Below are positions 4,345-24,504 of a stretch of DNA of 51,771 bases, piece after piece. The stretch covers positions 1-51,771 of the forward strand of contig JABRVU010000157.1 in NCBI GenBank assembly GCA_039961895.1. Direction: 5' to 3'. The stretch's first letter is position 1. The number at the start of each line of letters is the position of its first letter. Source of the stretch: Phycisphaerae bacterium. GTDB taxonomy: Bacteria; Planctomycetota; Phycisphaerae; UBA1845; PWPN01. Under the pieces are notes generated by a model that was not told the DNA's origin, ran no database searches, and saw nothing but the letters and a program-made list of their open reading frames with translations. Position numbers and translations under genes: made by a program.

Positions 4345-4619
4345 AGGAAATCCTGGAACGGAACAGCGAGGCCGTCCGCGAGGCTGGACGGCAACTGGTC
4401 GAGATCGGTGCGGAGCTGGCTGCCGGGAAAATCGACGATGCCCTGGCCCGGCTCGATACCGCACGGCAGGCTTACCCCGAGTGGGAGGAGCTCGATCAAG
4501 CCGCGGCTGATATCGAAGGGGTGATCCGCGACCGCGAAGGAATGCTCGCCGTCCAGCACATCCTGGCCGAGATCATCGGCACGGTCCTCGGGTCGGCCTT
4601 GAGGTCGAGGCTGCCCTGA
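4341..4619 (+). CDS. Hypothetical helical protein (92 aa)
   Basis: ATGA overlap with the upstream stop. Its TGA overlaps the terL ATG by 1 nt (TGATG), so it looks translationally coupled on both sides. Confidence 0.5.
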   Translation: MKEILERNSEAVREAGRQLVEIGAELAAGKIDDALARLDTARQAYPEWEELDQAAADIEGVIRDREGMLAVQHILAEIIGTVLGSALRSRLP

Positions 4620-7611: not shown

Positions 7612-7633
7612 GGTTCTTTCCGGTTTCAGCCTC

Positions 7634-7689
7634 ATCCGGAAATAAATATAGCCGGATAGGCCTGTGAGTGTCAAGGGATATTTCCGGAT
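7634..7689. repeat. Perfect 11-bp inverted repeat upstream of the ATPase gene
   Basis: ATCCGGAAATA at 7634-7644 and TATTTCCGGAT at 7679-7689. A third half-site-like CCGGATA lies at 7652-7658. Confidence 0.7.
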
Positions 7690-7724
7690 ACGGTCTGGCA
7701 TTCCCAGCCCGAACAACCCGCCCA

Positions 7725-7755
7725 CCGACGTTCCTTCCCCGCCTCCGGTAGATAA
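7725..7755 (+). promoter_or_regulatory. Bipartite motif copy c: CCGACG-N18-TAGATAA
   Basis: CCGACG 7725-7730, spacer ends CTCCGG, TAGATAA 7749-7755. About 36 nt upstream of the portal ATG. Confidence 0.6.
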
Positions 7756-7790
7756 CCCCAGGGGCGGGCTTTCCCCGCCACACGGCGCGA

Positions 7791-9437: not shown

Positions 9438-12400
9438 TCGGTGCGCTCGCGGCAGAACGTCCGCTCTCCCAAGCCGAGGCCATCCGCCTGGCCACGGAGA
9501 AAAGCGTCCGCGCCCGCAATCTCTATACGGAGCAAACGGTCGCCGAGCTGACCGCGATGCTTGCCGGGGCCGAGGAGGAGGTCCGCCGCGCTATCCTCCG
9601 CTACAAGAGTCTCGGCTCCCTCCCCGACAACAAGCTGGCCGCTCTCGAAGGTCTCAAGAAACTCCAAGCCGACATCCAGGAGACCACGAGCCGCCTGCAC
9701 CGGGAGCAGACGCTGCTTTTCCGGAAGACGGCCAAGACATCCTTCCGCCAGGGCATCTACCGAGGCATCGACGAGTTCGCCGCGGCCCAGCTTCCCTTTT
9801 ACCGCGACTTGACCCCGGAGGGCATCGACAAGCTCGCCACCCGAGTGTTCACCCTGGTGGATACCGATGCCCTCGATTTCATGACCAACTACAACCTGGT
9901 CCTGGCCGGCGACGTCAACCGCGAGCTGGCCGACGGCATCAAACGGGTCGTGATGGGCGGCATCGCCACCGGCAAGGGCGTCGAGGACATCGTCCGCGAC
10001 CTCGGGCGCGTGGTGAAAGACCCGGAGTCCTTCCGCTACGCCGGTTCCAAGGTGTTCACCAAGGCGCAGTATCGCATGGAGGTGATCGCCCGCACGGAGG
10101 TCCTGCGCGCCCATAACCAGGGGCGACTCAAGTTCCACGACCGGGTCGGAGTCCGGAAACTCGAATGGATGACCATGGAGGACGAGCGGGTCTGCCCGGT
10201 CTGCGGGCCGCTGGACGGCAAGGTGTTCGACACGAACCGCTTTCCCCGGCAACCGGCCCATCCCAACTGCCGCTGTACGAGTGTGGTCGCTTGGCCCCTG
10301 GTGATCTGCGGAGGAGAGCTGGGGGCGAAAGCCGCGGCTGAACCCGCCGCGTGCATCATCCCGCCCCAGGCCATCGAAGAGCAGGCGAAGGCCAAGGCGG
10401 CGGAAGACGCGAAGCTCAAGGCAGCCTTCGAAGGCGGACAGATCGCCGACCTGAACACTCTAAGCGTGAAGCAACTCCAGACCCTGGCCAAGCAGAACGG
10501 CGTCTCCATCGCCCGGACCAAAGCCGACTTCATCCATCTGCTCGACGCGGCGGAGCCGGGCGTGGACCACTCCACCCTCTCCGGAGCCGCCCTCGACGCC
10601 AAGCTCAAACAACACAAGATCGGCCTGCTCCGCACCAAGGACGACCTGATCCAACTCCTGGCGCAGAAACAGGCGTCCCTCAAGCAGGCGCAGCAACTGG
10701 CGGACCAGCTCAAGAAGATTCCGCCGAGCGGCGGGCTGCATGACCTCACCGTGGTCGAGCTGCAGGAGATGGCCAAAGCCAAGGGCGTCTCCCTCAACAT
10801 GACCAAGCAGGACGTGATCGACCTGCTCGACGAGTTGGAACCCGGCGTCGATCACAAGGCGCTCCAAGGCGCGACCCTGATCGACGCCAAGAAGAAGCAC
10901 CACATCGGCCCGCTCAAGAACAAGCAGCAGCTTGTCAAGGCGCTGGAAAAGGCGGCCGGTGAGGAACTGGCGGAAAAGGCCAAGAAGGAAGCTCTCGAAG
11001 CAGCCGAGAAGGCCGCAATCAACAAGGCGAAACAGGCTGTCGAACAGACCGCTGCAAAGGTGATCGTGCCGGAGTCCCCCGCAGGATACGCCGACTTCCT
11101 CTCGGCGGTGAAAGATGCGGAATCGGCGCTCGCGGCTTCGCACGGTCTGCCGCAGGAGATACTCGAAGGACACGCCAAAGAGCTCGCCCTCAAGAAAAAG
11201 CTATTTCAGGATCAGGTCGCGGCCATGAAGGTGGGCGACCTCAAGACCCTGGCCAAGGACACAAAGCTCAAGCACTGGCAGTGGGCGAACAAGGACGAAC
11301 TGGTCACTCTGCTTACGGAGACCGACCCGGCCAAGATCGAGGCCGCCAAGGCCGGCATCGAAACGAAACACGCCACCTGGTTGGAAAAGCACGGCGGCAA
11401 AAAGAAGGCCGCCGCGCCGGAATCGGCGAAGCCCGCGCCGACTCCGAAACCAACGCCACCGTCCCCGCCGGTTTTCACCAAGAAAGGCGCTCAGTTCGAG
11501 GAGACGGACGCGGCATGGATCGCCAAGGGCAAGCCGGGGAACTTCAAGCCCGCGGGCAAGGCCCAGGTCGGCGGCGCGCACAACAAGGAGTTCTGGACCG
11601 ATGAAAAAGGCGACCGCTGGCTGTTCAAACCGGTGGAACGTTCCGGCGACGACTTCATCGCCTATGGAGAGGAAGTCGCCTACAAGATCGGACGCCTCAT
11701 CGATCCGAACGCGGTCGAGGTCCGCACCATCCGCTTGAATGGACGCCTCGGCTCCATCCAGAAGTGGCGGACCGACCTCAAGGAGCGTTTCGACTTCGCC
11801 GGATTGGACCTCGCAGACCTCACCACCCTCGACATCGAGCAGATTCAGCGGGAGCACGTCGTCGACTGGTTGATCTCCAATCATGACGGCCATGCCAAGC
11901 AATTTCTGCGGGCTCGTGACGGGAAGGTCTACGGCATCGACAAGGGGCAGATCTTCAAATACCTGGGTGAGGACCGCCTGGCCGTCGACTATCACCCGAA
12001 CTCCAAGTACGGAGAACAAGAGCCCTTTTACAATACGGTTTTCCGCGCCGCCAAGGAAGGCAAGGTCAAAATCGATCCCGCGGCGACTCTCCGCTACATC
12101 CGCGAGGCGGAGAAGATCGCCGACGAGGATTACCTGGCCATTCTGCGTCCCTATGCCGAGGGACGGTTCGGAGGGGACGAATCCCGCAAGCAAGCCTTTT
12201 ACGATTTAGCACTTGCTCGGAAAAGGAATCTTCGGCGCGACTTCGAGGGCTTCTATGCGGACGTGTTGGGCCGTCGGGACTTCCGTTTCGAGGATGTGTT
12301 GGAGGCGCTGCCGAAGACGCGTTTGGGGCCGACCGAGGAGGCGCTTCTTGAGGAAGTCCGCTCCCTCGGCTGGCAAGGGAAGGTGCTACCCTTCGACGAG

Positions 12401-13999
12401 GACGACATCGAGGATCAGAACGCCCTGGTCTTCGTCGAGACCTTGAAGGGAAAGCAGCGGACCGTGGTCAAGATGAAAGTTCGGCCTGAAGCGGAGGGAA
12501 AGCTTCTTGAGGCGCTGCGCAAGGCGGGAGTCGACACCACAGCCGCCCGGGTGGGTGAAGCGCTGCCGCAGGACGTTTTCGCCCAGGACATATTGGCCGC
12601 GGTGAAAACGGTCAACCACCACGCCACGGACCAGCAGTACAACCAGGGGACGCTCAAAAAGGCTGCGGACCATCTGAAGGCGTTAAAGCGCCTGGCTGAC
12701 TCGGACGATCCCGACGAACAAGCCATGGCCCGAAGCTACATCGACTGGATTGAGAAGGTCCAGGAAGCAGCCCGTGAACACAAACCGGTCGCCGGACGGT
12801 TCGATGTATATCTCAAGAAACATGCCGCGCCGGAAAAGAAACCCAAAAAGGTTCCCTTCACCGTGCGCCGGACGAAGGTGCTTCAGGCCAAACGAGAGCT
12901 CAAGAACGGCGAACTCGTTGTCGTGGACGAGGCGGCGGACAACTCGGCGCTGTTCCGCGGTCGTGCCATGAAGGCCGGCGAGCAGTTCGAAATCGATTTC
13001 GGCGACGGCACGCGCGCCGTCTACCGCCCGTGGTCGGACAAGAACCTCTACGCCCAGCAAGGGGAATTCGAAATGGTCCTGCCAGACAGGCCGGACGTCA
13101 AGAGCCTCGAAAGGGCTATGGAACGGATGGAATCGTTGGGCATCAAGGCAGGTGCGGCCACGCCGCAGGACGCCGAGCTTCTCTATCTTCACAAGCAAGC
13201 CTACCTCGCCAAGGTGGACCGAGAGCCGGACTACAAGCGGCTGGTCGAGGACCTTGATCGCCGGGCGGCGAGCAAGGAGGAACGCATCCGCGAGATGCGC
13301 GGCTTCTGGGAAAAACGGCTCGGAGTGAAAGACATCACCCGCATGCCGGGCTACGACCCCATGGGCGAATACCAGGCCGCTTTCAAGAATCCCGCCAAGC
13401 GAGCAGGCTACAGGCATCAATACCGCTTCGACATTTCCGACGCGGACATCGAGAAGCAGATGAAGGGATACGGCCTTCATCACCGGCTGACCAACGGCGA
13501 GGACGTGGCGTCGTTCATCGACGCGGCGCTGGGAAACAACGGAGCCATGGTGAGTACGGTCGAGAAGCTGCGCGCCGGGGTGCCGGTGGGTGGGATGTCG
13601 CCGGAAGCGGACATGGACACCGGCGGTGCGAGCTATTTCTTCACCCGGATCAAGAAGCTCCCGACGGCCGGAGGGCCGTCCGACACGGGGCTCTACTTCA
13701 AGAAGCGGATGCTCCGTCGCATGGACGCCATCAGTTACGACCACGACGCCTTCGGGCGGGTGAGGGACGAATACGTCTCGAACCACCGGGGGAGCACGCC
13801 CGAGGAGTGGAAACAGTTCGCCCGCCGAGGTAGCAACGAGACGATCTTCAAGTACTCGGTGACCCTGCTGGACAACATCGACGTGATCGTGGTCGGAAGC
13901 GAGCGGGAAAAACAACGGCTGTTGGAGGTCTTCCGCAACCGAAAAATCATGAAGCTGCCCGACGGCCGCAAGATCGAGGAGATCGTACTGGTGAGGTGA
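9434..13999 (+). CDS. Giant MuF-domain polyvalent virion protein (1521 aa): MuF + HeH/SAP-like repeats + PI3/4-kinase-like domain + unassigned C-terminal domain
   Basis: ATG 9434 in an ATGA overlap with the portal stop. The MuF (SPP1 gp7) signature ends ...EDERVCPVCGPLDGKVF...PAHPNCRCT (about 9850-10290). Kinase-like motifs: LFKPVERSGDDF, NHDGHAKQ, GIDKGQ (11621-11950). Confidence 0.8.
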   Translation: MIGALAAERPLSQAEAIRLATEKSVRARNLYTEQTVAELTAMLAGAEEEVRRAILRYKSLGSLPDNKLAALEGLKKLQADIQETTSRLHREQTLLFRKTAKTSFRQGIYRGIDEFAAAQLPFYRDLTPEGIDKLATRVFTLVDTDALDFMTNYNLVLAGDVNRELADGIKRVVMGGIATGKGVEDIVRDLGRVVKDPESFRYAGSKVFTKAQYRMEVIARTEVLRAHNQGRLKFHDRVGVRKLEWMTMEDERVCPVCGPLDGKVFDTNRFPRQPAHPNCRCTSVVAWPLVICGGELGAKAAAEPAACIIPPQAIEEQAKAKAAEDAKLKAAFEGGQIADLNTLSVKQLQTLAKQNGVSIARTKADFIHLLDAAEPGVDHSTLSGAALDAKLKQHKIGLLRTKDDLIQLLAQKQASLKQAQQLADQLKKIPPSGGLHDLTVVELQEMAKAKGVSLNMTKQDVIDLLDELEPGVDHKALQGATLIDAKKKHHIGPLKNKQQLVKALEKAAGEELAEKAKKEALEAAEKAAINKAKQAVEQTAAKVIVPESPAGYADFLSAVKDAESALAASHGLPQEILEGHAKELALKKKLFQDQVAAMKVGDLKTLAKDTKLKHWQWANKDELVTLLTETDPAKIEAAKAGIETKHATWLEKHGGKKKAAAPESAKPAPTPKPTPPSPPVFTKKGAQFEETDAAWIAKGKPGNFKPAGKAQVGGAHNKEFWTDEKGDRWLFKPVERSGDDFIAYGEEVAYKIGRLIDPNAVEVRTIRLNGRLGSIQKWRTDLKERFDFAGLDLADLTTLDIEQIQREHVVDWLISNHDGHAKQFLRARDGKVYGIDKGQIFKYLGEDRLAVDYHPNSKYGEQEPFYNTVFRAAKEGKVKIDPAATLRYIREAEKIADEDYLAILRPYAEGRFGGDESRKQAFYDLALARKRNLRRDFEGFYADVLGRRDFRFEDVLEALPKTRLGPTEEALLEEVRSLGWQGKVLPFDEDDIEDQNALVFVETLKGKQRTVVKMKVRPEAEGKLLEALRKAGVDTTAARVGEALPQDVFAQDILAAVKTVNHHATDQQYNQGTLKKAADHLKALKRLADSDDPDEQAMARSYIDWIEKVQEAAREHKPVAGRFDVYLKKHAAPEKKPKKVPFTVRRTKVLQAKRELKNGELVVVDEAADNSALFRGRAMKAGEQFEIDFGDGTRAVYRPWSDKNLYAQQGEFEMVLPDRPDVKSLERAMERMESLGIKAGAATPQDAELLYLHKQAYLAKVDREPDYKRLVEDLDRRAASKEERIREMRGFWEKRLGVKDITRMPGYDPMGEYQAAFKNPAKRAGYRHQYRFDISDADIEKQMKGYGLHHRLTNGEDVASFIDAALGNNGAMVSTVEKLRAGVPVGGMSPEADMDTGGASYFFTRIKKLPTAGGPSDTGLYFKKRMLRRMDAISYDHDAFGRVRDEYVSNHRGSTPEEWKQFARRGSNETIFKYSVTLLDNIDVIVVGSEREKQRLLEVFRNRKIMKLPDGRKIEEIVLVR
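10451..11325 (+). repeat. Protein-level tandem repeats of HeH/SAP-like helix-extended-helix modules inside the polyvalent protein
   Basis: Unit 1: LNTLSVKQLQTLAKQNGVSIARTKADFIHLLDAAEPGVDHSTLSGAALDAKLKQHKIGLLRTKDDLIQLL. Unit 2: LHDLTVVELQEMAKAKGVSLNMTKQDVIDLLDELEPGVDHKALQGATLIDAKKKHHIGPLKNKQQLVKAL. A further half unit, VGDLKTLAKDTKLKHWQWANKDELVTLL, lies at about 11231-11325. Confidence 0.7.
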
Positions 14000-14001
14000 G
14001 C

Positions 14002-14472
14002 ATGAAAGAGTTCATCGAAAAGGAAAAAGCCCGTCTGCAAGCACTCTTCGAGCCGTTCAACACCGGAGGCTCCTGGATGACGCTGGCGGACAAAGGCCGG
14101 ACGCCGGTCCGGCTCGGTATCGTGGACGGGTTCACCGTGACCCGCGTGGCCCCGCAATTCGACGCCGGCGGGAATTTGACGCGCATCGGTTTCTGGCTTC
14201 TCATCCGGCTCTCCGGATACGACGAGGGCTTCCAACACGCCCACACCATCAAGGTCGTCTCCTGGTCGCAGGACGACACCTACCTGCTCGATCTGCTCGA
14301 TGATCGGGACCGCAGGTTCCACATCGAGCTCATCTTCCCTGACCAGGAACCCAACGAGGCGGCGGACTGGAAGCGCTGGCGAGACTACAAGGCCGGAAAT
14401 CGGGACCGATTCGAACGGATCGACGCGGAGCTTCTGACCGAGCACACCCGCATTGCGGAGGAATGGGAATGA
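14002..14472 (+). CDS. Hypothetical protein (156 aa)
   Basis: ATG 14002, 3 nt after the polyvalent-protein stop and preceded by GGTGAGGTGAG. No family recognised. Confidence 0.6.
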   Translation: MKEFIEKEKARLQALFEPFNTGGSWMTLADKGRTPVRLGIVDGFTVTRVAPQFDAGGNLTRIGFWLLIRLSGYDEGFQHAHTIKVVSWSQDDTYLLDLLDDRDRRFHIELIFPDQEPNEAADWKRWRDYKAGNRDRFERIDAELLTEHTRIAEEWE

Positions 14473-14813
14473 AGCTCAGATACATGATCGAATACGCGCT
14501 CCGCGACCGTATCCGCAACCCGCGCTACGAACCCATCGGCGTCTGGGTTCAGGGCCCGGGACCGGGATTGGACCTGGTGATCGATTTCCTGCCCGGAAAC
14601 GCGGACGCCGAGGAAGACGCTCAGTGGGTGGTCAACCGGCTGGTCGAACAAGGAGTCAGCGGTCTGCCCGACGATTTTCTGGCCTACCACCAGGGCACTC
14701 TTTCCCAATACCGCGGCATGCGCGGTCCCGTGGTCGAAAGCGACGAATACCCGTCCGCAGAGGCCTGCGCCCGGTCGGTCATCGACCGGATCAAGTCGGG
14801 CCGCATCTCCTGA
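14469..14813 (+). CDS. Hypothetical protein (114 aa)
   Basis: ATG 14469 in an ATGA overlap with the upstream stop; alternative ATG at 14463. No family recognised. Confidence 0.55.
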   Translation: MKLRYMIEYALRDRIRNPRYEPIGVWVQGPGPGLDLVIDFLPGNADAEEDAQWVVNRLVEQGVSGLPDDFLAYHQGTLSQYRGMRGPVVESDEYPSAEACARSVIDRIKSGRIS

Positions 14814-14821
14814 TCCCCCCT

Positions 14822-14852
14822 CCGACACTTTTCGACGGTCTCCGGTAGGTAT
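14822..14852 (+). promoter_or_regulatory. Bipartite motif copy d: CCGACA-N18-TAGGTAT
   Basis: CCGACA 14822-14827, spacer ends CTCCGG, TAGGTAT 14846-14852. The flank CTGATCCCC..CCGACACTT is shared with copy e. Confidence 0.65.
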
Positions 14853-14955
14853 CCAAGCGACAGGGCTCTCGGCCTGATTTCGGGGTTCACCCCGGGCACG
14901 GGCCGACCGCCCACCGGCATCAACCGGATTTGTCGCGACATGACCGGAGAACCGA

Positions 14956-17900
14956 ATGGAGCTTTTCGCAACTGACCGTGAACGGCTGGCGTTCCTCCTC
15001 GAAACGGACGCCGCCCTGGACCTGGACTTCGAGGCGCTCGAGGCCCAGGCCGAGGCGGCTGCCGAGGAGCCGTCGCCGGAAGAGCGGCCAAAATACATCA
15101 CCAACTACATCGGCTCGAAGCAGAAGCTGGTCGACTGGATTTGGAAACACACGCCGGAGGGGGTGGAATCCGCGGCCGACGCCTTCTCTGGTTCGGCGGT
15201 CGTGGCCTACATGTACAAGACCAAGGGCCTGCGGGTACTGGCCAACGACCGGCTGCGCTACTGCCACCACGCGGCCCGGGCGATCATCGAGAACGACAAG
15301 GTGCGTCTCTCCGATGAGGACCTGGAGGCGCTGCTCGCGGACAACGCGAAGGCCGGAACCTTCGTCCGGGACAACTTCAAGGGCATCTTCTTCGCCAAGG
15401 GCGTCCACGGCCTGATCGACACGATCCGGTCGAACATCGACAAACTCTCGGGTTTCAAGAAAGACATCGCTCTCTTCGCCCTGGGCAAGACCTGCATGTC
15501 CGGCAAGGGCGGCTTCGGGCATTTCTCGTCGTCGACCCGCTACGGCAAGCGCGAGGACACCCCGGAGGAATTCAAGGAGCGGCTGCGCAAGAACGTGGCC
15601 CGCATCAACGCCCTCGTTTTCGACAACGGCAAGGAGTGCAAGGCATCCCGCAAGGACATCAACGACTTCCTGCCGGAGGCCAAGGCCGACCTCGCCTATT
15701 TCGATCCGCCCTACGCCACGGAGTTTTCGACCACCAACTACGAGAAATCCTACCACTTCGTGGAAGGACTGATGACCTATTGGGAGGGGCTGACCCTCGT
15801 CGAGGATTCCAAGACCAAGCACTACGAGACCGACCACAAGACCGTGACCCGCGCCAACGCCGCGGAGTTCTTCGAGTCCTTCCTCGGAAACGCCAGGCAT
15901 ATCCCGCACTGGCTGATTTCATACCGCGACCACGCCTATCCGAACGAATCGGAGATGCGGCGGATCATCGCCTCCCTGGGACGGGATTCGTCGATGCGCT
16001 CCCACGATCACCATTACGCCATCACATCCCGGCACGGCGAGGCGTCCCACGCCAAGGAACGTCTGTTCATCTGCCGCAAGGCCGAAGGTGTGGAGCGGTC
16101 CGCCAAGGCGTCCACAGAGGACAGCCTGCGGGCGGAAGCCGTCTGGGAGGAAACCGAGAATGAGGTCCGCTTCCGTGTCCGGAACCCGGACGAGTTCGAA
16201 CCCGACAGCTTCCGCCGCAAGCCCCTGGAGGGCGTCGACGGCGTTGCGATCATCATCGGACGCTTGAAGAAGGAGTTCGTGCCCGAGGGCGGCAATCCGC
16301 GCGCCATGGTGTTGCAGGCCTACCGGTTCGTCCGCAAGACGGAGAAGAACCCGGACGGCTGGACCGTGGAAAAAGCCAAGGAGTGGATCGACAAGCACGA
16401 AGCCGGACGGGCCGTGGATGCCGCCCTGCGCGTGGAGGAGAACCTGATCGCTCTGGCGGATGCGCCGCTTGGCGAATCGCTGGACCTCTTGAGCTGCCAG
16501 GCCGGGAAAGCGGAGTCGGTCCGCGTCACCGGTTTCATGGGCAGCAAGTACCTGATGCTCGGCTGGATCGAAAGCCATGTCCCCAAGGACGCGGAGAGCA
16601 TCCTCGATGCTTTTTCAGGCGGGGCCAACGTCGCCTATCACTTCAAACGCAAAGGGCTGAAAGTCATCGCCAACGATCTCCTGCGGTATCCCCACCATCT
16701 GGCGCGGGCCGTGGTGGAGAACTCCAGCGAGACTCTGAGCGACGAGGACGTGGACCGAATCCTCGCCCCCAATGCGGACGCGGGCACCTTTATCGTCGAT
16801 CACTTCTACGGCTACTACTACACCAAGCCGGTGCTCCGGTGGCTCGACCAAGTCTGGGCGAACATCCAGAAGCTTCACGGCTACAAGAAAGATCTGGCGC
16901 TGGCCGCGCTCGGCACGACCGTCAAGGCCAAGAGCGCCTTCGGTCAGTTTTCGCGGTCCAAGATGCACCGCAAGGCAGACCTCGACACGGATGCCAGCCT
17001 GGAGCAATCCCAGCTCTCCAATCCGCCGCTGTCCAAGTTCATCGAGTCGTTCCGGCGATCGGTGGGCCAGCTCAACCGGCTGGTCTTCGACAACGGCAAA
17101 GAGTGCAAGGCCTTCAACCTGGATGCGGCCGAGGCGGTCCGGCGATTCGGCGCGGACGTTCTGTATCTGGACCCGCCCTACGTCACCGAGTTCGGCAGCA
17201 ACGATTACGAGGACTCCCTGCATTTCATCGAAGGGCTCATGACCCGCTGGGCGGACAAGGAACTCCAGGACAATCCCCGCCGCAACTATCCGTCCCGGAC
17301 GCGTTACACCAAGGAATCGATCCGTTCCCTGATGGAGACGATGGCAGCTGACGCCCGGGGCAAGTACGGCACGGTGCTCCTGTCATACCGCGACCGGGCT
17401 TTCCCGCGGGAAGAGGAAATCAAGGAGATATTCGCCGAGCACTACGGTCTCGTCCGAGTCCGCGGCATGGAGGTGGACTACAACATCGCCAAGGACATCG
17501 GCCGGGAAGGCAAACACGCCCGGGAACTGCTCTTCGTCGCTTCCAAATCACGCGGTGCGGCGCGCTCCAAAGCGGATACGCGGGCACCGGCGGCATGTCA
17601 CACCTCGTTCCCCGTGGAGCTGTCGTTCGATACGTTTTCCGGGCTCCAGACCGAAGCGGCGGCATTGGACCAGGCCGCGGGCGATCCGCAGTTCACCTTC
17701 ATCCTCTGCCGGGCCGGCACGAACAAGAACGGCGACCACTTCACCCCAGACGAACTGGCCGCCCGCTACATGACGGCGATCAACAAGAAGATCGACCTGA
17801 AGCATTCCCAGGATTTCACCGACATCGTCGGCGGCATTGTGGGGGCGGATTACGTGGAGGACGAAAGCGGCGGCCGGATCGAGTGCGCGGGCGAACTCTA

Positions 17901-18819
17901 TGTCTCCGACAGCCCGCACGCGCAGTTGGCCTACAAGCTCATCCGCAAAGGGATCATCTCCCAGGTCTCCATGGAATGCGACTACGAGGAAGGCGAGTGC
18001 TCGATCTGCGGCAAACGCGTCGTTTCGAAGAGCGATTACTGCGTCCACCTGCGCAAGAACAAAGGCGGCGAGCTCCAGGGGCAGCCCGTCTACGAAATCC
18101 TCCACGGCGTCACTTTCACCGGGCTCGGGCTTCTCGACCGCAAAGGCGCGGACGAAAACGCCCGCATCCTGAAAGTCGCCGCGGCGGAAAACGATGGTTC
18201 GACAACCCACTCTGAAGGAGGTCCGACAATGGACGAGAAACACAAGGAAACCGAGGAACGGGAAGCGGATGCCGCCAAGAAGAAGGACGACGGCGGCGGC
18301 GGGACCGCGCCCGATGACAAGACCCGGCTCAAGGAACTGGAGCGGGAGAACAAGGAACTCAAACAGCAGGTTCTCGCGCTGCAGAAGCAGCTCGAGGAAC
18401 TGGAGGCGGAGAAAAAGGCCGCCGCGAACCGGAGCCGAGCCCAGAAGCTCCTGCGCAAGATCGAAAAGAGCGGGCTGGCATTCGAGAGCGACGAGGATCG
18501 CGAACAGGAGTTGAGCCGTCTGGCCGGTCTTTCCGACGACGCCTTCGCCGCCAGCGAAGCCGCTTTCGAGCGGATGATGAAGGCCGGGCCCCGCGCTCAC
18601 GCCGACGACAAGGACGCCAAGGACCGAGGAGCCGGAGCGGAAACCGCGAAGGCTTCATCCGGCGGCGACGATCCGCCTCTTCGCAGCGACGCGGGCGTCC
18701 GTCCGAAGGACGTGGAAGACAAAAAGACGAGCCTCGAGGACCGGCTGAAGAGCGGCTTCATGGCCGCCTACCGGCAGCGAGTGGCGACGGCGACCGGAGA
18801 ACCGGTTTCGACCAACTGA
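14956..18819 (+). CDS. Fusion protein: two tandem Dam-like (D12 class) N6-adenine DNA methyltransferase modules + prohead serine protease-like domain + coiled-coil scaffold
   Basis: ATG 14956 after GGAGA. Module 1: YIGSKQKL, DAFSGSAVV, DPPY (15703-15714). Module 2: FMGSKYLM, DAFSGGANV, DPPY (17170-17181). Protease-like: IDLKHSQDFTDIVGGIVGADYVEDESG...GIISQVSMEC. C-terminal: KELERENKELKQQVLALQKQLEELEAEKKAA. Confidence 0.8.
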   Translation: MELFATDRERLAFLLETDAALDLDFEALEAQAEAAAEEPSPEERPKYITNYIGSKQKLVDWIWKHTPEGVESAADAFSGSAVVAYMYKTKGLRVLANDRLRYCHHAARAIIENDKVRLSDEDLEALLADNAKAGTFVRDNFKGIFFAKGVHGLIDTIRSNIDKLSGFKKDIALFALGKTCMSGKGGFGHFSSSTRYGKREDTPEEFKERLRKNVARINALVFDNGKECKASRKDINDFLPEAKADLAYFDPPYATEFSTTNYEKSYHFVEGLMTYWEGLTLVEDSKTKHYETDHKTVTRANAAEFFESFLGNARHIPHWLISYRDHAYPNESEMRRIIASLGRDSSMRSHDHHYAITSRHGEASHAKERLFICRKAEGVERSAKASTEDSLRAEAVWEETENEVRFRVRNPDEFEPDSFRRKPLEGVDGVAIIIGRLKKEFVPEGGNPRAMVLQAYRFVRKTEKNPDGWTVEKAKEWIDKHEAGRAVDAALRVEENLIALADAPLGESLDLLSCQAGKAESVRVTGFMGSKYLMLGWIESHVPKDAESILDAFSGGANVAYHFKRKGLKVIANDLLRYPHHLARAVVENSSETLSDEDVDRILAPNADAGTFIVDHFYGYYYTKPVLRWLDQVWANIQKLHGYKKDLALAALGTTVKAKSAFGQFSRSKMHRKADLDTDASLEQSQLSNPPLSKFIESFRRSVGQLNRLVFDNGKECKAFNLDAAEAVRRFGADVLYLDPPYVTEFGSNDYEDSLHFIEGLMTRWADKELQDNPRRNYPSRTRYTKESIRSLMETMAADARGKYGTVLLSYRDRAFPREEEIKEIFAEHYGLVRVRGMEVDYNIAKDIGREGKHARELLFVASKSRGAARSKADTRAPAACHTSFPVELSFDTFSGLQTEAAALDQAAGDPQFTFILCRAGTNKNGDHFTPDELAARYMTAINKKIDLKHSQDFTDIVGGIVGADYVEDESGGRIECAGELYVSDSPHAQLAYKLIRKGIISQVSMECDYEEGECSICGKRVVSKSDYCVHLRKNKGGELQGQPVYEILHGVTFTGLGLLDRKGADENARILKVAAAENDGSTTHSEGGPTMDEKHKETEEREADAAKKKDDGGGGTAPDDKTRLKELERENKELKQQVLALQKQLEELEAEKKAAANRSRAQKLLRKIEKSGLAFESDEDREQELSRLAGLSDDAFAASEAAFERMMKAGPRAHADDKDAKDRGAGAETAKASSGGDDPPLRSDAGVRPKDVEDKKTSLEDRLKSGFMAAYRQRVATATGEPVSTN

Positions 18820-18835
18820 CAAAGGAGGAATGACC

Positions 18836-19198
18836 ATGGCTTTCATCAATCCCAATCATCGGGGCCTCGCATACGGCGACGGCTACCTGCAGGGCGACGG
18901 CCAACTCGGCCAGGTGGTGAGGATCGTCGGTAACGACCTCTTCGCCGTGAACACCACGCCGACGGCCAAGTCCTTCGGCATTCTGATCAAGGATTACAAG
19001 AACGGAGAGATGCCCGGCATCTACTGCATGGGCGGCGTCTACGAGACCGACGTCTTCGAGGGGACCGTGAATCCCGGCGACGACCTGAAGGTTTCGGCCA
19101 ACGGGAAACTCACCGCGGGCGTGCAGGCGGGCGAGGAAGTCATCGCCCGGGCCGTCTCCGTCTCCGGCGGAACGATCAAGTTCCGGCTGCTCATCTGA
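18836..19198 (+). CDS. Head decoration protein candidate (DUF2190-like)
   Basis: ATG 18836, 7 nt after AAGGAGG (an ATG at 18830 is too close to the SD). About 120 aa, immediately upstream of the capsid gene. GILIKDYKNGEMPGIYCMGGVYE resembles DUF2190. Confidence 0.5.
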   Translation: MAFINPNHRGLAYGDGYLQGDGQLGQVVRIVGNDLFAVNTTPTAKSFGILIKDYKNGEMPGIYCMGGVYETDVFEGTVNPGDDLKVSANGKLTAGVQAGEEVIARAVSVSGGTIKFRLLI

Positions 19199-19216
19199 TT
19201 ACAGGAGGAAAACGAT

Positions 19217-20080
19217 ATGGAGACGATCCGCATGAACGTGCACAGCCAGGAATACATGGAGACGATGGCGCGCCTGATGTCCGAGGCGCTCGAGTCCCCG
19301 GAAGGGATGCGCGCGCTGGCCGCGGCCATCGCCGAGCCCATCGAACAGGAAATCAAACGCAAGGAGATCTCTTCGCTCCTGCTCACGAAGCACACTCTGC
19401 CCAAGGGAGAGCGTCCTCTTTACCAGAAGAAGCCCAAAGTGAAGGCCTACTGGATTTCCACCGAAGGCGAGGCTCAGGAGCAGGAAGTCGGCAAGGACGA
19501 AGTGGAGTTCCCGACAAACCGCATCCACTCCGCTCCCATGGTCGATGTTTCGGTGCTCAAGAACGGCAACATCGGCACCCTGATGGACATCCAGACCGCG
19601 GCCGCGGACGAAATCCGCAAGGAGATCGACAAGCGGACCATTACGGTGCTTTCGGCGGCGGTGCCCGCGGCCAACACCGTGGAGGTGACCGGCGCGACAC
19701 TCACCGAGGAGGCGCTCAACGAGGCGATCTCCATCATCGAAGACCTCGAATTGACGGTGAAGTATATCGTCATGAGGGGCCGGCGTTTCAATGACCTGCG
19801 GGGCTGGAACCTCGACCCGGAAACCAAGGCCGAGCTGCGTGCCAAGGGTGTCATCAAGAACTATGGGACCGGCGGCATACTGCTGACCGCAGCGCAGGCC
19901 ATCGACGAGGTGCTGCTCATCCCCGACGAAGAGGTGGGCAAGATGCCGGTGCGCGAGAGCCTCAAGACCGAAGCCATCGAGCAGAAGACCCGCTTCAAGA
20001 CCGGCTGGCTCGTCTGGTCGGAACTGGGGCAAGGCATCACCCGCCCGGACATTCTCGCCAAGATCAAAATTCTCGGCTGA
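19217..20080 (+). CDS. Major capsid protein (HK97 fold)
   Basis: 287 aa, strong SD (CAGGAGG), placed after the protease/scaffold and decoration genes. Composition and length are typical of small HK97-fold capsid proteins. Confidence 0.75.
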   Translation: METIRMNVHSQEYMETMARLMSEALESPEGMRALAAAIAEPIEQEIKRKEISSLLLTKHTLPKGERPLYQKKPKVKAYWISTEGEAQEQEVGKDEVEFPTNRIHSAPMVDVSVLKNGNIGTLMDIQTAAADEIRKEIDKRTITVLSAAVPAANTVEVTGATLTEEALNEAISIIEDLELTVKYIVMRGRRFNDLRGWNLDPETKAELRAKGVIKNYGTGGILLTAAQAIDEVLLIPDEEVGKMPVRESLKTEAIEQKTRFKTGWLVWSELGQGITRPDILAKIKILG

Positions 20081-20092
20081 CGGAGGTGAACC

Positions 20093-20455
20093 GTGACCGT
20101 GAAACTGAAAAACATCCGCCCGGGAGTCCTGATCATCGCCGACGCGAAGCTGCGCCTCGACCCGGGCCAGGCCTTCGAAGCGGAGTCGATCTCCCCTCAG
20201 ATGGAGTCGGCGTTGTCCGCGGGAAGACTCGCCCGGATGGACGGCAAGGACGATCACCGGAAACAGGACGAAAGCCCCTTGACCAGTATTCAAGAGGAAG
20301 ACCTCTCTGGGCTTACCGCAACCGAAGCCATCTCCCGGATCGGCACCGAGGGTGATCCCGACAAGCTCAAAGCCCACTTGGCGGGTGAGAAACGACGGAC
20401 GGTGATCGACGCCCTCAAGAAGCGGCTGACGGAGGTGGAAGGTGGCGCTGGCTGA
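20093..20455 (+). CDS. Hypothetical head-module protein (120 aa)
   Basis: GTG start after GGAGGTGA. Position only. Confidence 0.5.
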   Translation: MTVKLKNIRPGVLIIADAKLRLDPGQAFEAESISPQMESALSAGRLARMDGKDDHRKQDESPLTSIQEEDLSGLTATEAISRIGTEGDPDKLKAHLAGEKRRTVIDALKKRLTEVEGGAG

Positions 20456-20900
20456 TCTTGTCGTCGTTCTCCGGGCCGACCTGTCCGATCTCCAAGGCGA
20501 GCTGTTCACCGACGACGTCCTTTCCCGCTGCATCCTGAAAGGCGTCTATCGTCTGGCGCGCGACCTGGAGCTTTCCGTGTCCGTCGTGAACGGAGAGGTG
20601 GTTCCGGAGCCTGAAGGCGAGCCGCGTGAGCTGTTGCTCCTGCTGGGCCAGATTCATGCATGCCAGGTCATGCGGGCACAGACCGCCAACGCGTTCGCCT
20701 TTTCCAGCGGCGACAAAAGGGTGGACAAGACCAAACAGCCCGAGCATTGGGCCGGGCTTGAGGGAGACCTCAAGGCCGTGTACAAGCAGCGGCTGAGTGA
20801 AATCAAACCGGGAGCCGCCGCATCCCCCGAGGACTACATCATCACGCCCGGCGGACTCAGACCGGTCATCTACGACCAAGGAAGCGAGCTTGAGCTGTGA
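20442..20900 (+). CDS. Putative head-tail connector protein
   Basis: GTG start overlapping the upstream gene end. Position between the capsid and gp10-like genes. Confidence 0.45.
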   Translation: MALADLVVVLRADLSDLQGELFTDDVLSRCILKGVYRLARDLELSVSVVNGEVVPEPEGEPRELLLLLGQIHACQVMRAQTANAFAFSSGDKRVDKTKQPEHWAGLEGDLKAVYKQRLSEIKPGAAASPEDYIITPGGLRPVIYDQGSELEL

Positions 20901-21259
20901 GCCTCTTGAGCGATCCCGAGAAAGATGCGGCCGCCGGGGACGTAAAGGAACTGATCCTTGCATGCGGGCAGGAAGCGGCGTTGCTGCGCGCCGTTCCGGG
21001 CGAGCGATTGTATGGATCGGACGACGCATCGTTCACTGAAGTGGAGACCTTTCCGCTCGAGTTCATCGAAACGCCGCCGGAGGACCTCGCCAACAAGATC
21101 GACGCCACGGCCTGCGTGCTCCCCGCCCTGGATGTGAGACCGGAAGACCGGGTGAAAGGCGGCGCGGACGTTTTTCGGGTTCAGACCGTAGTGGAAGAGC
21201 GTCTTTTCGGCGTCGTGACCCACAAGGTGCTGAAGCTGGTGCGCATCCATGGGAGTTAA
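20897..21259 (+). CDS. Putative head-tail adaptor / head closure protein
   Basis: GTGA overlap with the upstream stop. 120 aa. Position in the connector module. Confidence 0.45.
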   Translation: MSLLSDPEKDAAAGDVKELILACGQEAALLRAVPGERLYGSDDASFTEVETFPLEFIETPPEDLANKIDATACVLPALDVRPEDRVKGGADVFRVQTVVEERLFGVVTHKVLKLVRIHGS

Positions 21260-21734
21260 GCGTTTCGGCGATTGGGAAAAGGCGAAAGCGAAGCTGGCCG
21301 GCAATCCCGGAGCCCGGCTCGCCCTGGCGATCCGGCAGGCGACCATCAAGAACGCCCTTCTCCTCGTCCGCGAGATCAAGCGCGGCATCCGGTCCCAAGC
21401 TCCCGGCGGAAAGGCGTTCGTCAAGTTGGCCGAGAGCACCATCGCACGCAAGGGTTCCAGCAAAGCCCTGATCGATACCGGCTTCCTCGTCAATTCGATC
21501 ACTCAGCGCATCCTCTCGGACCGGGCTTTCGTGGGACTCCTGCGCGGCACTGTCAACAAGGACGGCGACGACCTGGTGAACATCGGCGCGGTGATGGAAT
21601 ACGGAGCCACCATCCAGCACCCCAACGGCGCGGTGATCGTCATCCCGCCCCGTCCATTCCTGCATCCCACGATGGAAAAGTACCGCGAGCAGATAATCGA
21701 GAACTACCGCCAGGCCATCCGCGCCGCGCTCTGA
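21249..21734 (+). CDS. HK97 gp10-like tail-completion / head-tail joining protein
   Basis: 161 aa. The pattern ...RKGSSKALIDTGFLVNSIT...VNIGAVMEYGA...IPPRPFL resembles the HK97 gp10 family. Confidence 0.6.
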   Translation: MGVKRFGDWEKAKAKLAGNPGARLALAIRQATIKNALLLVREIKRGIRSQAPGGKAFVKLAESTIARKGSSKALIDTGFLVNSITQRILSDRAFVGLLRGTVNKDGDDLVNIGAVMEYGATIQHPNGAVIVIPPRPFLHPTMEKYREQIIENYRQAIRAAL

Positions 21735-21739
21735 TCCCC

Positions 21740-21770
21740 GCCGACACTTCCCGTCCGGCTCCGGTAGGTA
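21740..21770 (+). promoter_or_regulatory. Bipartite motif copy e: CCGACA-N18-TAGGTAT
   Basis: CCGACA 21740-21745, spacer ends CTCCGG, TAGGTAT 21764-21770. Sits at the head/tail module boundary. Confidence 0.65.
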
Positions 21771-21808
21771 TCCAGCGGAAACGTTCGCTTGAGCCGGAGG
21801 AACCGGAA

Positions 21809-22357
21809 TTGGAAACCGTTCGCACAGTCGTTGAAAGCCTGATCCGCCTGATCAAGGCGGAGATCGACCCGGACGCGGTGCTCGTCGCCGCGGACGACGT
21901 CTTCGAGGTGCCCAACGTCCCGAGCCTGATCCTGCAGGGACCGACGCTGGTCGAAAACGGCGACCGCCGCACCATGGCCCACATAGTGGAGAAGGATGTC
22001 CCGAACCTCGTTTATGAACAGTGTCGGCATCCCCGGCTCTACCACCTCGACTTCGACGTCATCGTCACCGCCGGCCATGAAGGCGATCTGCTGGACCTCC
22101 AGGAACGGGTGGCCCGTTTCTATCAGCTCCACCCGGTCCTGACTGTGGAAGGCCGAGGCTCCCTCAACCTGACGGAGATCGTCCCCTTGGGCGGGTTGCG
22201 ACGGGTGAACCTGTCCAACCTGCGCCAGAGCAGCGGCCGCTGCCGGATCGAGGACTGCCCGGTTTACGACGGCCTCGTCGAAACGGGCCCGCTCATCAAA
22301 GACCGCCGGTTCGAGTTCCGGGACGGCGTCGAGGAGGATCGGCTCCATACCCCATGA
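21809..22357 (+). CDS. Putative tail terminator / sheath-proximal tail protein (182 aa)
   Basis: Coding part of ORF 21272-22357. There is no in-frame ATG after the gp10-like stop. TTG 21809 lies 8 nt after GGAGG (21796-21800). Position just upstream of the sheath. Confidence 0.45.
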   Translation: METVRTVVESLIRLIKAEIDPDAVLVAADDVFEVPNVPSLILQGPTLVENGDRRTMAHIVEKDVPNLVYEQCRHPRLYHLDFDVIVTAGHEGDLLDLQERVARFYQLHPVLTVEGRGSLNLTEIVPLGGLRRVNLSNLRQSSGRCRIEDCPVYDGLVETGPLIKDRRFEFRDGVEEDRLHTP

Positions 22358-22374
22358 AACAAGGAGGAACCACT

Positions 22375-22644
22375 GTGATCGAAATCAAGAATCTTCTGTT
22401 CCAACCGCTCACGTTCCACCTGGCGGGAGGCGGCCGGGGGCTTCATCTGAATCCCCGCGAGCGCAGAACGCTGGAAGAGGACGACATTTCCCCCGAGATC
22501 GATGCCGCGGCAAAGCGGGGCTTCGTGTCGCTGACGTCGTCGCCGCCGACCGTTCCCGAACCCGAGACGCCGCGGGAAGAGCCGGTCGAGACCGAGACGG
22601 AACACACCGGCGCAAACGGCGGCAAACGTCGGAAACGGAGGTAA
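22375..22644 (+). CDS. Hypothetical protein (89 aa) with Pro/Glu-rich and KRRKRR tail
   Basis: GTG 22375, 7 nt after AAGGAGG. Alternative ATG 22354 in an ATGA overlap. Confidence 0.45.
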   Translation: MIEIKNLLFQPLTFHLAGGGRGLHLNPRERRTLEEDDISPEIDAAAKRGFVSLTSSPPTVPEPETPREEPVETETEHTGANGGKRRKRR

Positions 22645-22647
22645 CCC

Positions 22648-24504
22648 ATGGGCACGTATCTTTCACCGGGCATCTATACCCGCGAAGTCGACTTCAGCTT
22701 TTACGTCAAGCAAATATCCACCTCCTCCTGCGGCATGGTGGGTGTGGCCGAACGCGGCCCTATCAACAAACCCGTTCTGGTCACGAGCTGGGAGCAGTTC
22801 ATCAACAAGTTCGGCTCCTACCTGCAGGCCGGATACCTCGCTTACGCCGCAAGGGCGTTTTTCGACAACGGCGGCTCCGTCCTTTTCGTGAACCGCATCG
22901 CCCATCTGACCGATCCCACGGACCGAAACACCCTGACCGCCGTGAAGGCGCAAGCTATCCTCAAGGACCGGCGCGCGGCGACGGCGTCACTCGCAACCGG
23001 CACCGTCGGCACGGATCGAATTGCGTGGCGGGCGATTCAGCCGGGGGCCGCGGGAAACGCCGTCTCCGTCGAATTCGTCGTTTCGGGAAACGATACGCCA
23101 CTCTCCGTCGAGGTCTTGGGACAAGCAATCACCGTGAACCTGGCGACCGACGGCGCGGGTGATCCTGTATCCACAGCGGACCAGGTGGTCGCCGCGGTCG
23201 TCGGGTCTCCGTATGCCTCCGCGCTGGTCACGGCGGAAACGCAGGAGACGGGCGTCGTCCAAGCCGCAGCCTTGGCAAACTTGTCCGGAGGCATGGACGC
23301 GATGGACACGCTCAAGGTGCGGGCGGCCGACGAAGGAACCTGGGGCGAGCGTCTCTCCGTCCAGGTCGAAGACGGTTCTCTCGATCCGAGCGGCGCTTTC
23401 AACCTGGTGGTCCGCCACAAAGGTGAGGTCGTGGAGGTCTTCAAGGACCTCTCGATGGACGAAGCGGCTTCGAATCATGTAGAGCTTGTCGTCAACGAAC
23501 GGTCGGATTTCATCACCGTCGAGGACCTTGGAACCGCATCCGGCCTTCCGTTGGACCGGCCGGTGATCGGGGTGTTCGACCTTTCGGGAGGAGACGACGG
23601 TCTTACCGGGCTCGACGATGCCGACTACTCCGGCGATCCCTCCCAGCACACAGGCTTCTACGCCTTCGACGAGATCGACGCGCTGAATCTGGTCATGGCT
23701 CCGGGCGTCACGACCGCCGAGGTGATCCATGCCGGCATCACCTACGCGGAAAACCGCCAGGACCTCATGTTTCTCGCCGAAGCGCCCATTCACCTCGAAC
23801 CCCTGGAAGCGGTGGATTTCCGCAAGGGCCAGGGGATGTATTCCCACGGGGCCTTCAACTCGTCTTATGCCGCGCTCTACTATCCCTGGATCGAGATCAA
23901 CGACCCGGTGACCGGCAAGCGCAAGCTCGTTCCGCCCAGCGGAGCCGTGGCCGGGTGCTACGCCCGCAGCGACAAGAAGACCCACGTCTGGTACGCGCCC
24001 GCTGGCATCGACCGCGGCCGGGTCTTCAACGCCTTGTCCCTGGGCTACAAGACCAGCCGGGGCGAGCGGGACGTCCTCTATCCCGAAGGTGTCAATGTGA
24101 TCGCTTCCTTCCCCGACAGCGGCATCAACATCTGGGGACAGAAGACCCTGCAAAGCCAGCCCTCGGCCCTCGACCGCGTGAACGTGCGGCGGCTGATGAT
24201 GTTCATCGAGGAGGCCATCGCCGAGTCCTCGCGTTTCGTGGTCTTCGAGCCCAACAACCCGCAGACCTGGCGCGCGCTGATCCGGCTGATCAACCCCTTC
24301 ATGCAGGACATCAAGGACAAGGGCGGGCTCTACGACTTCGCCGTCCAGTGCGACGAGGAGACCAACACCCCGGCTGTGATCGACCGCAACGAACTCGTGG
24401 CGCGCGTCTTTGTCAAGCCGACCAAGACGGCGGAATTCATCGAGCTCAACTTCGTGCTCACCGCCACGGGGGCAGATTTCAAAGAGATATTCAAGACCGG
24501 GTAA
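22648..24504 (+). CDS. Contractile tail sheath protein
   Basis: 618 aa. N-terminus MGTYLSPGIYTREVDFS and C-terminal YYPWI...PPSGAVAG...WYAPAG...NPI-type motifs are typical of Phage_sheath_1. Confidence 0.9.
   Translation: MGTYLSPGIYTREVDFSFYVKQISTSSCGMVGVAERGPINKPVLVTSWEQFINKFGSYLQAGYLAYAARAFFDNGGSVLFVNRIAHLTDPTDRNTLTAVKAQAILKDRRAATASLATGTVGTDRIAWRAIQPGAAGNAVSVEFVVSGNDTPLSVEVLGQAITVNLATDGAGDPVSTADQVVAAVVGSPYASALVTAETQETGVVQAAALANLSGGMDAMDTLKVRAADEGTWGERLSVQVEDGSLDPSGAFNLVVRHKGEVVEVFKDLSMDEAASNHVELVVNERSDFITVEDLGTASGLPLDRPVIGVFDLSGGDDGLTGLDDADYSGDPSQHTGFYAFDEIDALNLVMAPGVTTAEVIHAGITYAENRQDLMFLAEAPIHLEPLEAVDFRKGQGMYSHGAFNSSYAALYYPWIEINDPVTGKRKLVPPSGAVAGCYARSDKKTHVWYAPAGIDRGRVFNALSLGYKTSRGERDVLYPEGVNVIASFPDSGINIWGQKTLQSQPSALDRVNVRRLMMFIEEAIAESSRFVVFEPNNPQTWRALIRLINPFMQDIKDKGGLYDFAVQCDEETNTPAVIDRNELVARVFVKPTKTAEFIELNFVLTATGADFKEIFKTG

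Follow-up and report, generated by a model that had tools for sequence, protein, structure and literature searches.

How does a phage gene that lies where a head protease and scaffold would be expected come to begin with two DNA methyltransferases? This question is raised by a 51,771-nucleotide (nt) contig from a Phycisphaerae bacterium (JABRVU010000157.1, assembly GCA_039961895.1), analysed at its full length and called here the window. A single open reading frame (ORF) on its plus strand, at 14956-18819, encodes 1287 amino acids (aa) in which two putative adenine methyltransferase (MTase) modules are followed by a predicted protease domain and a coiled-coil tail. The gene very probably makes a second, shorter protein from an internal start, and related loci occur in many phyla. 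The explanation towards which we lean, with modest confidence, is that two co-terminal products are made, that the MTases are packaged, released inside the head and ejected with the DNA, and that they then counter restriction in a Dar-like manner.

Layout of the gene

The features of the gene, in order along the window, are as follows.

14956-18819, plus strand: ORF of the predicted MTase-MTase-protease-scaffold polyprotein; ATG start, 1287 aa, main start with a weak Shine-Dalgarno (SD) sequence (GGAG)
14956-15090, plus strand: conserved acidic N-terminal leader (aa 1-45; ME-L-FATD..L.FLLE.DA); module 2 is preceded by a leader resembling it
15091-16110, plus strand: predicted D12-class N6-adenine DNA MTase module 1 (M1; aa 46-385); motif X NYIGSK, motif I DAFSGS, motif IV DPPY at 15703-15714
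16129-16425, plus strand: optional beta-rich domain of ~100 aa (aa 392-490) with a W..ET.NEIRYRVRDP motif
16516-17595, plus strand: predicted D12-class MTase module 2 (M2) with its leader (aa 521-880); GFMGSK, DAFSGG, DPPY at 17170-17181
17596-18180, plus strand: predicted divergent HK97-type prohead serine protease domain (aa 881-1075; confident core aa ~910-1075)
17803-17805 and 17968-17970, plus strand: codons of the candidate catalytic residues H950 and S1005
17998-18048, plus strand: zinc-finger-like insert in the protease domain (C1015-x2-C1018-x10-C1029-x-H1031)
18215-18222, plus strand: internal SD sequence AAGGAGGT, within GAA GGA GGT CCG ACA ATG
18229-18819, plus strand: nested in-frame ORF for a predicted scaffold-only coiled-coil product, M1092 to the stop codon, 196 aa, co-terminal with the full-length protein

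Is this one gene, or several that were joined by error? The third-position GC of the ORF (0.84) equals that of the other plus-strand phage genes. A homologue search of ~5.8 billion proteins gave 434 matches, and the best 120 of these all consist of leader, M1, the small domain where present, M2, protease-like domain and tail, at 52-98% identity. The first-pass annotation of this DNA had named a frameshift artefact as one finding that would undo its reading. In such a case, separate MTase, protease and scaffold genes would have been joined by sequencing or assembly errors. No support for this was found, and the idea is refuted by the same open frame in more than 100 independent assemblies, among them complete chromosomes of the isolates Desulfosarcina alkanivorans and Syntrophus buswellii. 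More than 100 full-length homologues, 52-98% identical, keep the same domain order, which leaves an artefact with a negligible probability.

Two D12-class methyltransferase modules

Both modules keep the motif order X, I (FxGxG) and IV (DPPY), with FSGS at aa 77 and DPPY at aa 250 in M1, and FSGG at aa 553 and DPPY at aa 739 in M2. The Pfam MethyltransfD12 profile (PF02086) matches three stretches spanning both modules at 149.6 bits (1.8e-43), far above its cut-off of 22. The modules are paralogous: an alignment of M1 (aa 48-385) with M2 (aa 524-875) spans 356 aa at 42% identity (E = 9e-87). The first-pass annotation had described tandem, Dam-like modules around these two DPPY motifs. The pair of paralogous adenine MTases and their D12 class are borne out; membership in the Dam subfamily is not, as the GATC-specific profile (NCBIfam TIGR00571) gives 27.7 and 26.1 bits, far under its cut-off of 114.85. 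On these scores the modules are to be classed as D12 enzymes and not as canonical Dam. The MTase profile found no match among PDB sequences at E <= 0.01, and the Pfam, PHROG and NCBIfam scans revealed no helicase domain in the protein and no MTase domains other than D12.

Are the modules active enzymes? In an alignment of 107 full-length homologues, reaching down to 52% identity, DPPY is present in 107 of 107 in each module, and motif I (D-A-F-x-G) and motif X (G-S/N-K) are invariant or nearly so. This pattern indicates selection on catalysis in both M1 and M2. It also argues against a structural explanation, in which the modules have lost their enzymatic function and act inside the head as structural or DNA-binding proteins, for example of an inner core or a DNA-organising kind. 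Some phages do have bulky internal head proteins, and the explanation borrows its plausibility from them; with both catalytic sites so strictly kept, we regard it as very improbable.

'Tandem' holds in the sense that paralogous modules share one ORF. A recent tandem duplication was considered and ruled out, because the two modules are only 42% identical and because single-MTase relatives are of the M1 type. These relatives (~795 aa) carry one module that is 75-79% identical to M1 and ~39% identical to M2. Since the single module is M1-type, M2 is seen as the inserted one; in other words, the two-MTase form arose when M2, alone or together with the small domain, was inserted behind M1 and ahead of the protease.

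An optional small domain

The small linker domain of the first-pass annotation proved to be the optional domain at aa 392-490. It is missing from homologues of ~1190 aa, and in MTase-free relatives it adjoins the protease on its N-terminal side. Its predicted fold is beta-rich with a helix (predicted local distance difference test, pLDDT, 85.5), and its best structural matches are uncharacterised phage proteins of ~470 aa and one entry annotated 'Prohead protease'. A homologue search with this domain returned fragments only. Another insert of ~110 aa (…DFKMKTQKNSQLTLGHS.LHRW.AAGWDSEG…) lies between M2 and the protease in homologues P0104, P0113 and P0116, where it replaces or supplements the small domain.

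A divergent prohead protease domain

Is the domain after M2 a head protease? An HK97/XkdF-like protease with its His at nt 17803 (H950), its Ser at nt 17968 (S1005) and a CxxC...CxH insert had been proposed from the sequence, and both conservation and viral structure matches agree with the proposal. H950 is present in 106 of the 107 aligned homologues and S1005 in all of them, as are C1008, C1015, C1018, C1029 and H1031 (107/107). PHROG families named 'head maturation protease' match the domain (3.8e-4 and 1.4e-3). Homologues P0132 and P0122 match region 50-116 of the Pfam Peptidase_S78 profile, the span of the catalytic His and Ser, at sub-threshold values (E = 0.0025 and 0.006). A further link comes from P0248, one of 1078 relatives retrieved in an exhaustive HMMER scan of 1.84 billion representatives. 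P0248 is matched by the window protease domain at 5.9e-16 and itself stands above the S78 gathering score (21.9 bits). Nine of ten small remote homologues fall below the Pfam S78 threshold; Pfam therefore covers this branch poorly.

Structural comparison points the same way. An AlphaFold2 model built with 21 homologues has a confident core (pLDDT ~83-94, domain residues 30-195). Foldseek searches of BFVD, a database of predicted viral structures, gave matches at E 1e-7 to 1e-16 with TMq 0.5-0.68. They include Bacillus phage G gp19 (3.4e-16), a Gordonia phage Pupper protein (2.6e-14) and dozens of entries named 'Prohead protease', 'COG3740 phage head maturation protease', 'Prohead serine protease' or XkdF-like, at probability 1.0. 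Judged by sequence and model, the domain belongs, as a divergent member, to the HK97-type prohead protease superfamily and is presumably an active enzyme.

The insert at 17998-18048 resembles C2H2 zinc fingers (E = 4.8e-5 in a search against PDB sequences) and could bind DNA or play a structural role. When the whole protein (phmmer) and the protease profile were compared with PDB sequences, neither an MTase nor a protease was matched, and the only matches were zinc fingers aligned to this insert.

A short motif, L-x-(A/T/S)-(E/Q)-(A/G), recurs across homologues at the boundary of M1 and the small domain (aa 391-396, nt ~16126-16143) and at that of M2 and the protease (aa 896-901, nt ~17641-17658). 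By analogy with T4 gp21, these motifs are candidate maturation cleavage sites after Glu/Gln.

An internal start and a scaffold-like tail

Does the tail also exist as a protein of its own? The sequence AAGGAGGT is a perfect SD, followed by a 6-nt spacer and an ATG at 18229-18231 (M1092). It is made of rare A/T-ending codons (GAA GGA GGT), GGA accounting for 10 of the 91 glycine codons of the gene. The linker after the protease is otherwise variable, yet 'G-G-x-x-M/V/L' is kept in the alignment, and swaps of the start residue among M, V and L always use start-competent codons. Six loci at 52-100% protein identity all read A/GGA/GGx, then two codons, then ATG, GTG or TTG.

Further evidence comes from 159 related loci taken from GTDB genomes and IMG/VR. 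AGGAG(G) lies 7-8 nt ahead of an in-frame start in 158 of them (5 nt in two loci), the start codon being ATG in 134, GTG in 14 and TTG in 10. The signal is found in 100 of 101 distinct linker sequences, against a chance expectation of 0.044 for an SD with a start in an equal window elsewhere in the same ORFs. The start codon stands 30-40 codons past a GLGLLD motif, and the nested product has a median length of 192 aa in the relatives. The nested SD pairs with the anti-SD more strongly than the SD of the main start does in all 127 loci compared (means of -9.9 vs -6.6 kcal/mol). Going by these features, the gene very probably yields a 196-aa co-terminal protein of ~21 kDa from the internal start. 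A second cluster of SD and ATG, ~297 codons upstream in a subset of loci, was rejected as a by-product of the MTase motif VEGLM (GTG GAG GGG CTx ATG).

The tail gives coiled-coil-type Pfam matches at aa 1100-1179 and has a conserved C-terminal block at aa 1241-1276. The first-pass annotation had placed a coiled-coil scaffold tail from ~18225, which agrees with these matches; the internal start at 18229, a few bases away, had gone unnoticed. Position, composition and the nested start suggest that the tail is the scaffold.

Place in the head module

The position of the gene is defined by its neighbours.

4619-6145: large terminase (TerL)
7791-9437, plus strand: Mu-type portal protein; the true start may lie downstream of 7791
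9212-13999, plus strand: giant minor head protein with a MuF domain; the longest ORF gives 1595 aa
13996-14472 and 14463-14813: two small ORFs of 158 and 116 aa between MuF and the fusion gene, no family match
18830-19198, plus strand: 122-aa head protein at the position of lambda gpD (decoration), weak scaffold-like match
19217-20080, plus strand: major capsid protein (MCP), 287 aa (phrog_2522, 2.4e-88)

Genes for tail sheath, tube, hub and tape measure follow the MCP. The MCP has no delta domain, and a separate scaffold is therefore needed. No second protease or scaffold was detected in the module running from portal and MuF through the fusion gene and the ~120-aa gene to the MCP. The gene order thus places ORF 14956-18819 in the canonical protease/scaffold slot of a myovirus-type head module, between portal/MuF and decoration/capsid, as had been read from the sequence at first. 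As part of the explanation that we favour, and with the same restrained confidence, we assign the ORF to a temperate myovirus whose head module is Mu/lambda-like, as its protease/scaffold gene with enzymatic cargo gained at the 5' end.

A widespread and modular family

The same arrangement is present in a prophage on the complete chromosome of D. alkanivorans, which reads integrase, TerL, portal, MuF, a 1284-aa fusion, a 120-aa gene, a 287-aa MCP, sheath, tube and tape measure. Four further loci have the same gene order, and a ~120-aa gene is kept at the position of ORF 18830-19198 in all syntenic loci examined. The protease-scaffold backbone occurs in a bare form (~390-410 aa), with one or two small domains before the protease, with one MTase and with two MTases. 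Among the 159 loci, 96 have one DPPY module, 57 have two and six have none. D12 MTases were the only enzymatic cargo in the relatives sampled.

This modularity bears on another explanation, namely that the fusion is an expression or dosage device. The MTases would then act in the cytoplasm on replicating phage DNA, within the polyprotein or after early self-cleavage; late co-expression would be what is selected, and encapsidated copies would be incidental and degraded. The existence of MTase-free relatives fits this idea, as it shows that the cargo is dispensable for assembly; so does the modest SD of the full-length product, and phage orphan MTases are normally cytoplasmic. However, the fusion is intact in more than 150 loci of many phyla, always N-terminal to the protease-scaffold and never split in complete loci. 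A covalent link to the scaffold would bring a cytoplasmic enzyme no gain and would drag it into procapsids, and prohead proteases are generally inactive before assembly. We therefore consider a purely cytoplasmic role improbable.

How widely has this prophage lineage spread? Stretches of 7.5-12.7 kb around the gene (window 11596-24255; loci L006-L016) are 90-98% identical at the nt level to loci in long contigs or chromosomes assigned to different phyla. The assignments are to Desulfosoma, Nitrospiraceae, Desulfatitalea, Ca. Ozemobacter, Syntrophus buswellii (complete chromosome), Phycisphaerae, Zixibacteria (a chromosome-level metagenome-assembled genome, MAG) and Anaerolinea. If the MAG taxonomy is right, this points to an unusually broad distribution for one prophage lineage, through a very broad host range or recent spread. 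Among deposited phages, megablast with window positions 9000-24000 gave no match, and tblastn against deposited phage genomes gave distant protease-domain matches only and no close phage. Four copies of a protease-bearing locus lie in one 9.1-Mb chromosome (Bryobacterales OZ252029.1; L033, L035, L037 and L038), which suggests polylysogeny or a transposable, Mu-like lifestyle.

The family includes phrog_27806 (798 aa), a PHROG named only 'DNA methyltransferase', which matches aa 524-1279 at 1372 bits. Full-text literature searches turned up no account in which an MTase is joined to a prohead protease or scaffold. The earlier remark that no characterised example was known stands as far as these searches go, although the architecture is no one-off and belongs to a large family. 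Each ingredient is known, namely the nested protease/scaffold gene, the HK97-type protease, tandem D12 MTases (M.FokI) and virion-borne anti-restriction proteins; their combination is widespread, uncharacterised and mis-annotated.

How might the polyprotein work?

In the explanation that we favour, the strong internal ribosome-binding site (18215-18222) and its ATG (18229) would direct synthesis of an abundant 196-aa coiled-coil scaffold, and the weaker upstream start that of a minor 1287-aa polyprotein. The C-terminal scaffold segment of the polyprotein would co-assemble with free scaffold and capsid protein, which would put the protease and both MTases inside the procapsid. After assembly, the serine protease (H950/S1005) would digest the scaffold and probably cut the inter-domain linkers, leaving free MTases of ~40 kDa trapped in the head with the DNA. 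The MTases would most likely leave the head along with the DNA and enter the next host, where S-adenosylmethionine (SAM) of the host would let them methylate the phage genome ahead of restriction, in a Dar-like manner. The two diverged modules might divide the strands of an asymmetric site between them, as in M.FokI, or recognise two different sites. This capsid-delivery account gains strength because the nested scaffold start is conserved and the catalytic motifs are invariant, though it is still one that we infer.

Several points weigh against the account. Against the Peptidase_S78 profile (PF04586), the window protease domain (aa 881-1100) reaches 14.9 bits with a cut-off of 21 (E = 0.031), and Foldseek found no significant match for the protease model in the PDB. 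H950 and S1005 do align with H65 and S114 of HK97 gp4, which we take to be its catalytic pair, when a broadened profile of 139 sequences is used, with a weak score of 3.9 bits; hhalign of the protease profile against the single HK97 gp4 sequence gave a probability of 0.3. Of the checks proposed in the first-pass annotation, profile searches of the MTase segments came out clearly, whereas those of the protease stayed below the S78 cut-off for the window sequence itself, with support coming from P0248 and the PHROG head maturation proteases; a model of the protease segment gave a confident core with prohead-protease matches in BFVD. The tail matches no named scaffold family, PHROG returning its own family only. 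Production of both products, encapsidation, cleavage, ejection and the timing of methylation are all deduced from sequence, and release of the MTases by maturation cleavage is conjecture. A folded 40-kDa enzyme would have to unfold to pass through the tail, and one or two sequence-specific MTases would shield DNA from only some restriction systems.

The difficulty of tail passage disappears if the MTases act earlier. With the same anatomy and the same capsid targeting, tethered MTases could methylate DNA during packaging in the producer cell, with SAM entering through capsid pores and ejection being irrelevant; the first-pass annotation had also raised this possibility. Every packaged genome would then be fully modified even if replication outran cytoplasmic methylation. 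The evidence for encapsidation is the same for this alternative as for the favoured account, and nothing that was computed separates the two. However, densely packed DNA would be a poor substrate, with access confined to early packaging, and P1 DarB, a known packaged anti-restriction enzyme, is believed to act after entry (PMC9024508). We judge methylation at packaging to be unlikely.

What would delivery of the MTases mean for the phage? A tentative extension of the favoured account, which we think possible and no better than doubtful, is that the polyprotein is a self-loading cargo. It would package and co-inject active MTases, pre-emptively modify the genome and so help one prophage lineage to establish itself across phyla (Desulfobacterota, Nitrospirota, Zixibacteria, Planctomycetota and Chloroflexota assemblies, at 90-98% nt identity). 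The cross-phylum distribution would fit a phage that carries its own DNA-protecting enzymes, if the taxonomic assignments are right.

The family is abundant: its members sit in hundreds of prophages, whose hosts are anaerobic and soil bacteria from many phyla. The database label 'DNA adenine methylase' covers the MTases only, so the head protease and scaffold of these phages go unannotated. The conserved nested start offers a testable case of translational control of the scaffold-to-enzyme stoichiometry, and cultured lysogens are available in Desulfosarcina alkanivorans PL12, D. widdelii PP31, Syntrophus buswellii DM-2 and Desulfobulbus rhabdoformis. The locus lies at about 290.9-314.8 kb of AP021874.1 in PL12 and at about 143-156 kb of NZ_CP175563.1 in DM-2.

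Other genes of the window

The MuF protein (9212-13999) has its MuF domain at aa ~240-360 and more than 1200 further aa without assignment (phrog_6577). The MuF gene at the syntenic position is shorter in D. alkanivorans (528 aa) and in a Schekmanbacteria MAG (296 aa); in locus L003 it exceeds 1522 aa. The window protein may be a MuF-effector or polyvalent cargo and, as such, a second candidate injected protein. A pair of small ORFs like that at 13996-14813 is present in L003 and L004 and absent in L001.

A 529-aa ATPase gene with AAA_14 and DUF4143 domains (6280-7869, minus strand) lies between TerL and portal and overlaps the longest portal ORF by ~80 nt. It is missing from the D. alkanivorans prophage, in which TerL and portal adjoin, and it looks like an inserted moron. 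A 1182-aa protein (43666-47214), encoded downstream of the baseplate and tail genes, matches only PHROGs of unknown function (phrog_877 at 4e-249, phrog_358 and phrog_5986). A gene with a glutamine amidotransferase domain (49943-51331; GATase_6, 1.1e-17) is probably a host gene at the right prophage boundary; its presence suggests that the element is a prophage in a bacterial chromosome.

Comparison with known systems

The closest parallels to the nested gene are lambda C/Nu3 and Mu I/Z, in which the head protease gene contains an in-frame internal start in its 3' part that gives a co-terminal scaffold. The window gene resembles both in lying between portal and capsid genes and in its internal 3' start with a putative co-terminal scaffold product, although the nested product is here predicted from sequence. 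As with lambda D and E, a small head protein and then the MCP follow downstream; as in Mu, the portal and MuF proteins are of the Mu type. Unlike either, the window gene has ~880 extra N-terminal residues, which hold the two MTases and the small domain, and its protease is HK97/S78-like, whereas that of lambda C is ClpP/S49-like.

HK97 gp4 (Peptidase_S78) shares the fold class and the order GD...His...Ser, and a C-terminal stretch probably serves to anchor the enzyme within the procapsid. The window protease differs in scoring under the Pfam gathering threshold and in having a zinc-finger insert and a long scaffold tail; in HK97 the scaffold is the delta domain of the capsid protein. M.FokI likewise has two complete D12 catalytic modules in one polypeptide, and homologue P0116 was automatically named 'Modification methylase FokI' at its source. 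In contrast to M.FokI, the window modules are split by an optional domain, are fused to virion assembly proteins and come without a cognate endonuclease.

Fusion of cargo to a scaffold has a precedent in engineered P22, in which cargo enzymes joined to the capsid-binding C-terminus of the scaffold are encapsidated at assembly. That system is synthetic, whereas the window system would be natural and has a protease built in. If the MTases are encapsidated, it would be a natural counterpart of the scaffold-fusion encapsulation used in nanotechnology.

Polyvalent proteins and MuF-effector fusions, as described by Iyer et al. 2017, join effector enzymes, adenine methylases among them, to a module for incorporation into the head and a protease for processing; injection has been proposed for them (PMC5512222). 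The likeness lies in a multidomain phage protein that pairs an adenine methylase with a head-incorporation module and a protease. In that paper, however, the methylase is of the DarB/SNF2/LPD36 type and the protease a zincin metallopeptidase, and in the text searched the prohead protease appears only in the reference list (PMC5512222).

Virion-borne anti-restriction proteins are the remaining parallel and a precedent for cargo that is packaged and then ejected. P1 DarB, of the Dar system, is an adenine MTase that is incorporated as the head is built and is believed to accompany the DNA into the cell (PMC9024508), and the T4 internal protein IPIII has a capsid-targeting signal (PMC5512222). The window gene would share with them an anti-restriction protein or adenine MTase as head cargo, its presence in the virion being suggested here by the fusion. 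The Pfam, PHROG and NCBIfam scans of the window protein did not return the DarB-type architecture of LPD36, MTase and SNF2/SF2 helicase. DarB is a 250-kDa MTase-helicase that uses a short N-terminal signal and helper proteins, whereas the window modules are D12-class, lack a helicase and are covalently fused to protease and scaffold. If they are encapsidated, this fusion would be a second, mechanistically different route to virion-borne anti-restriction, beside the signal and helpers of DarB.

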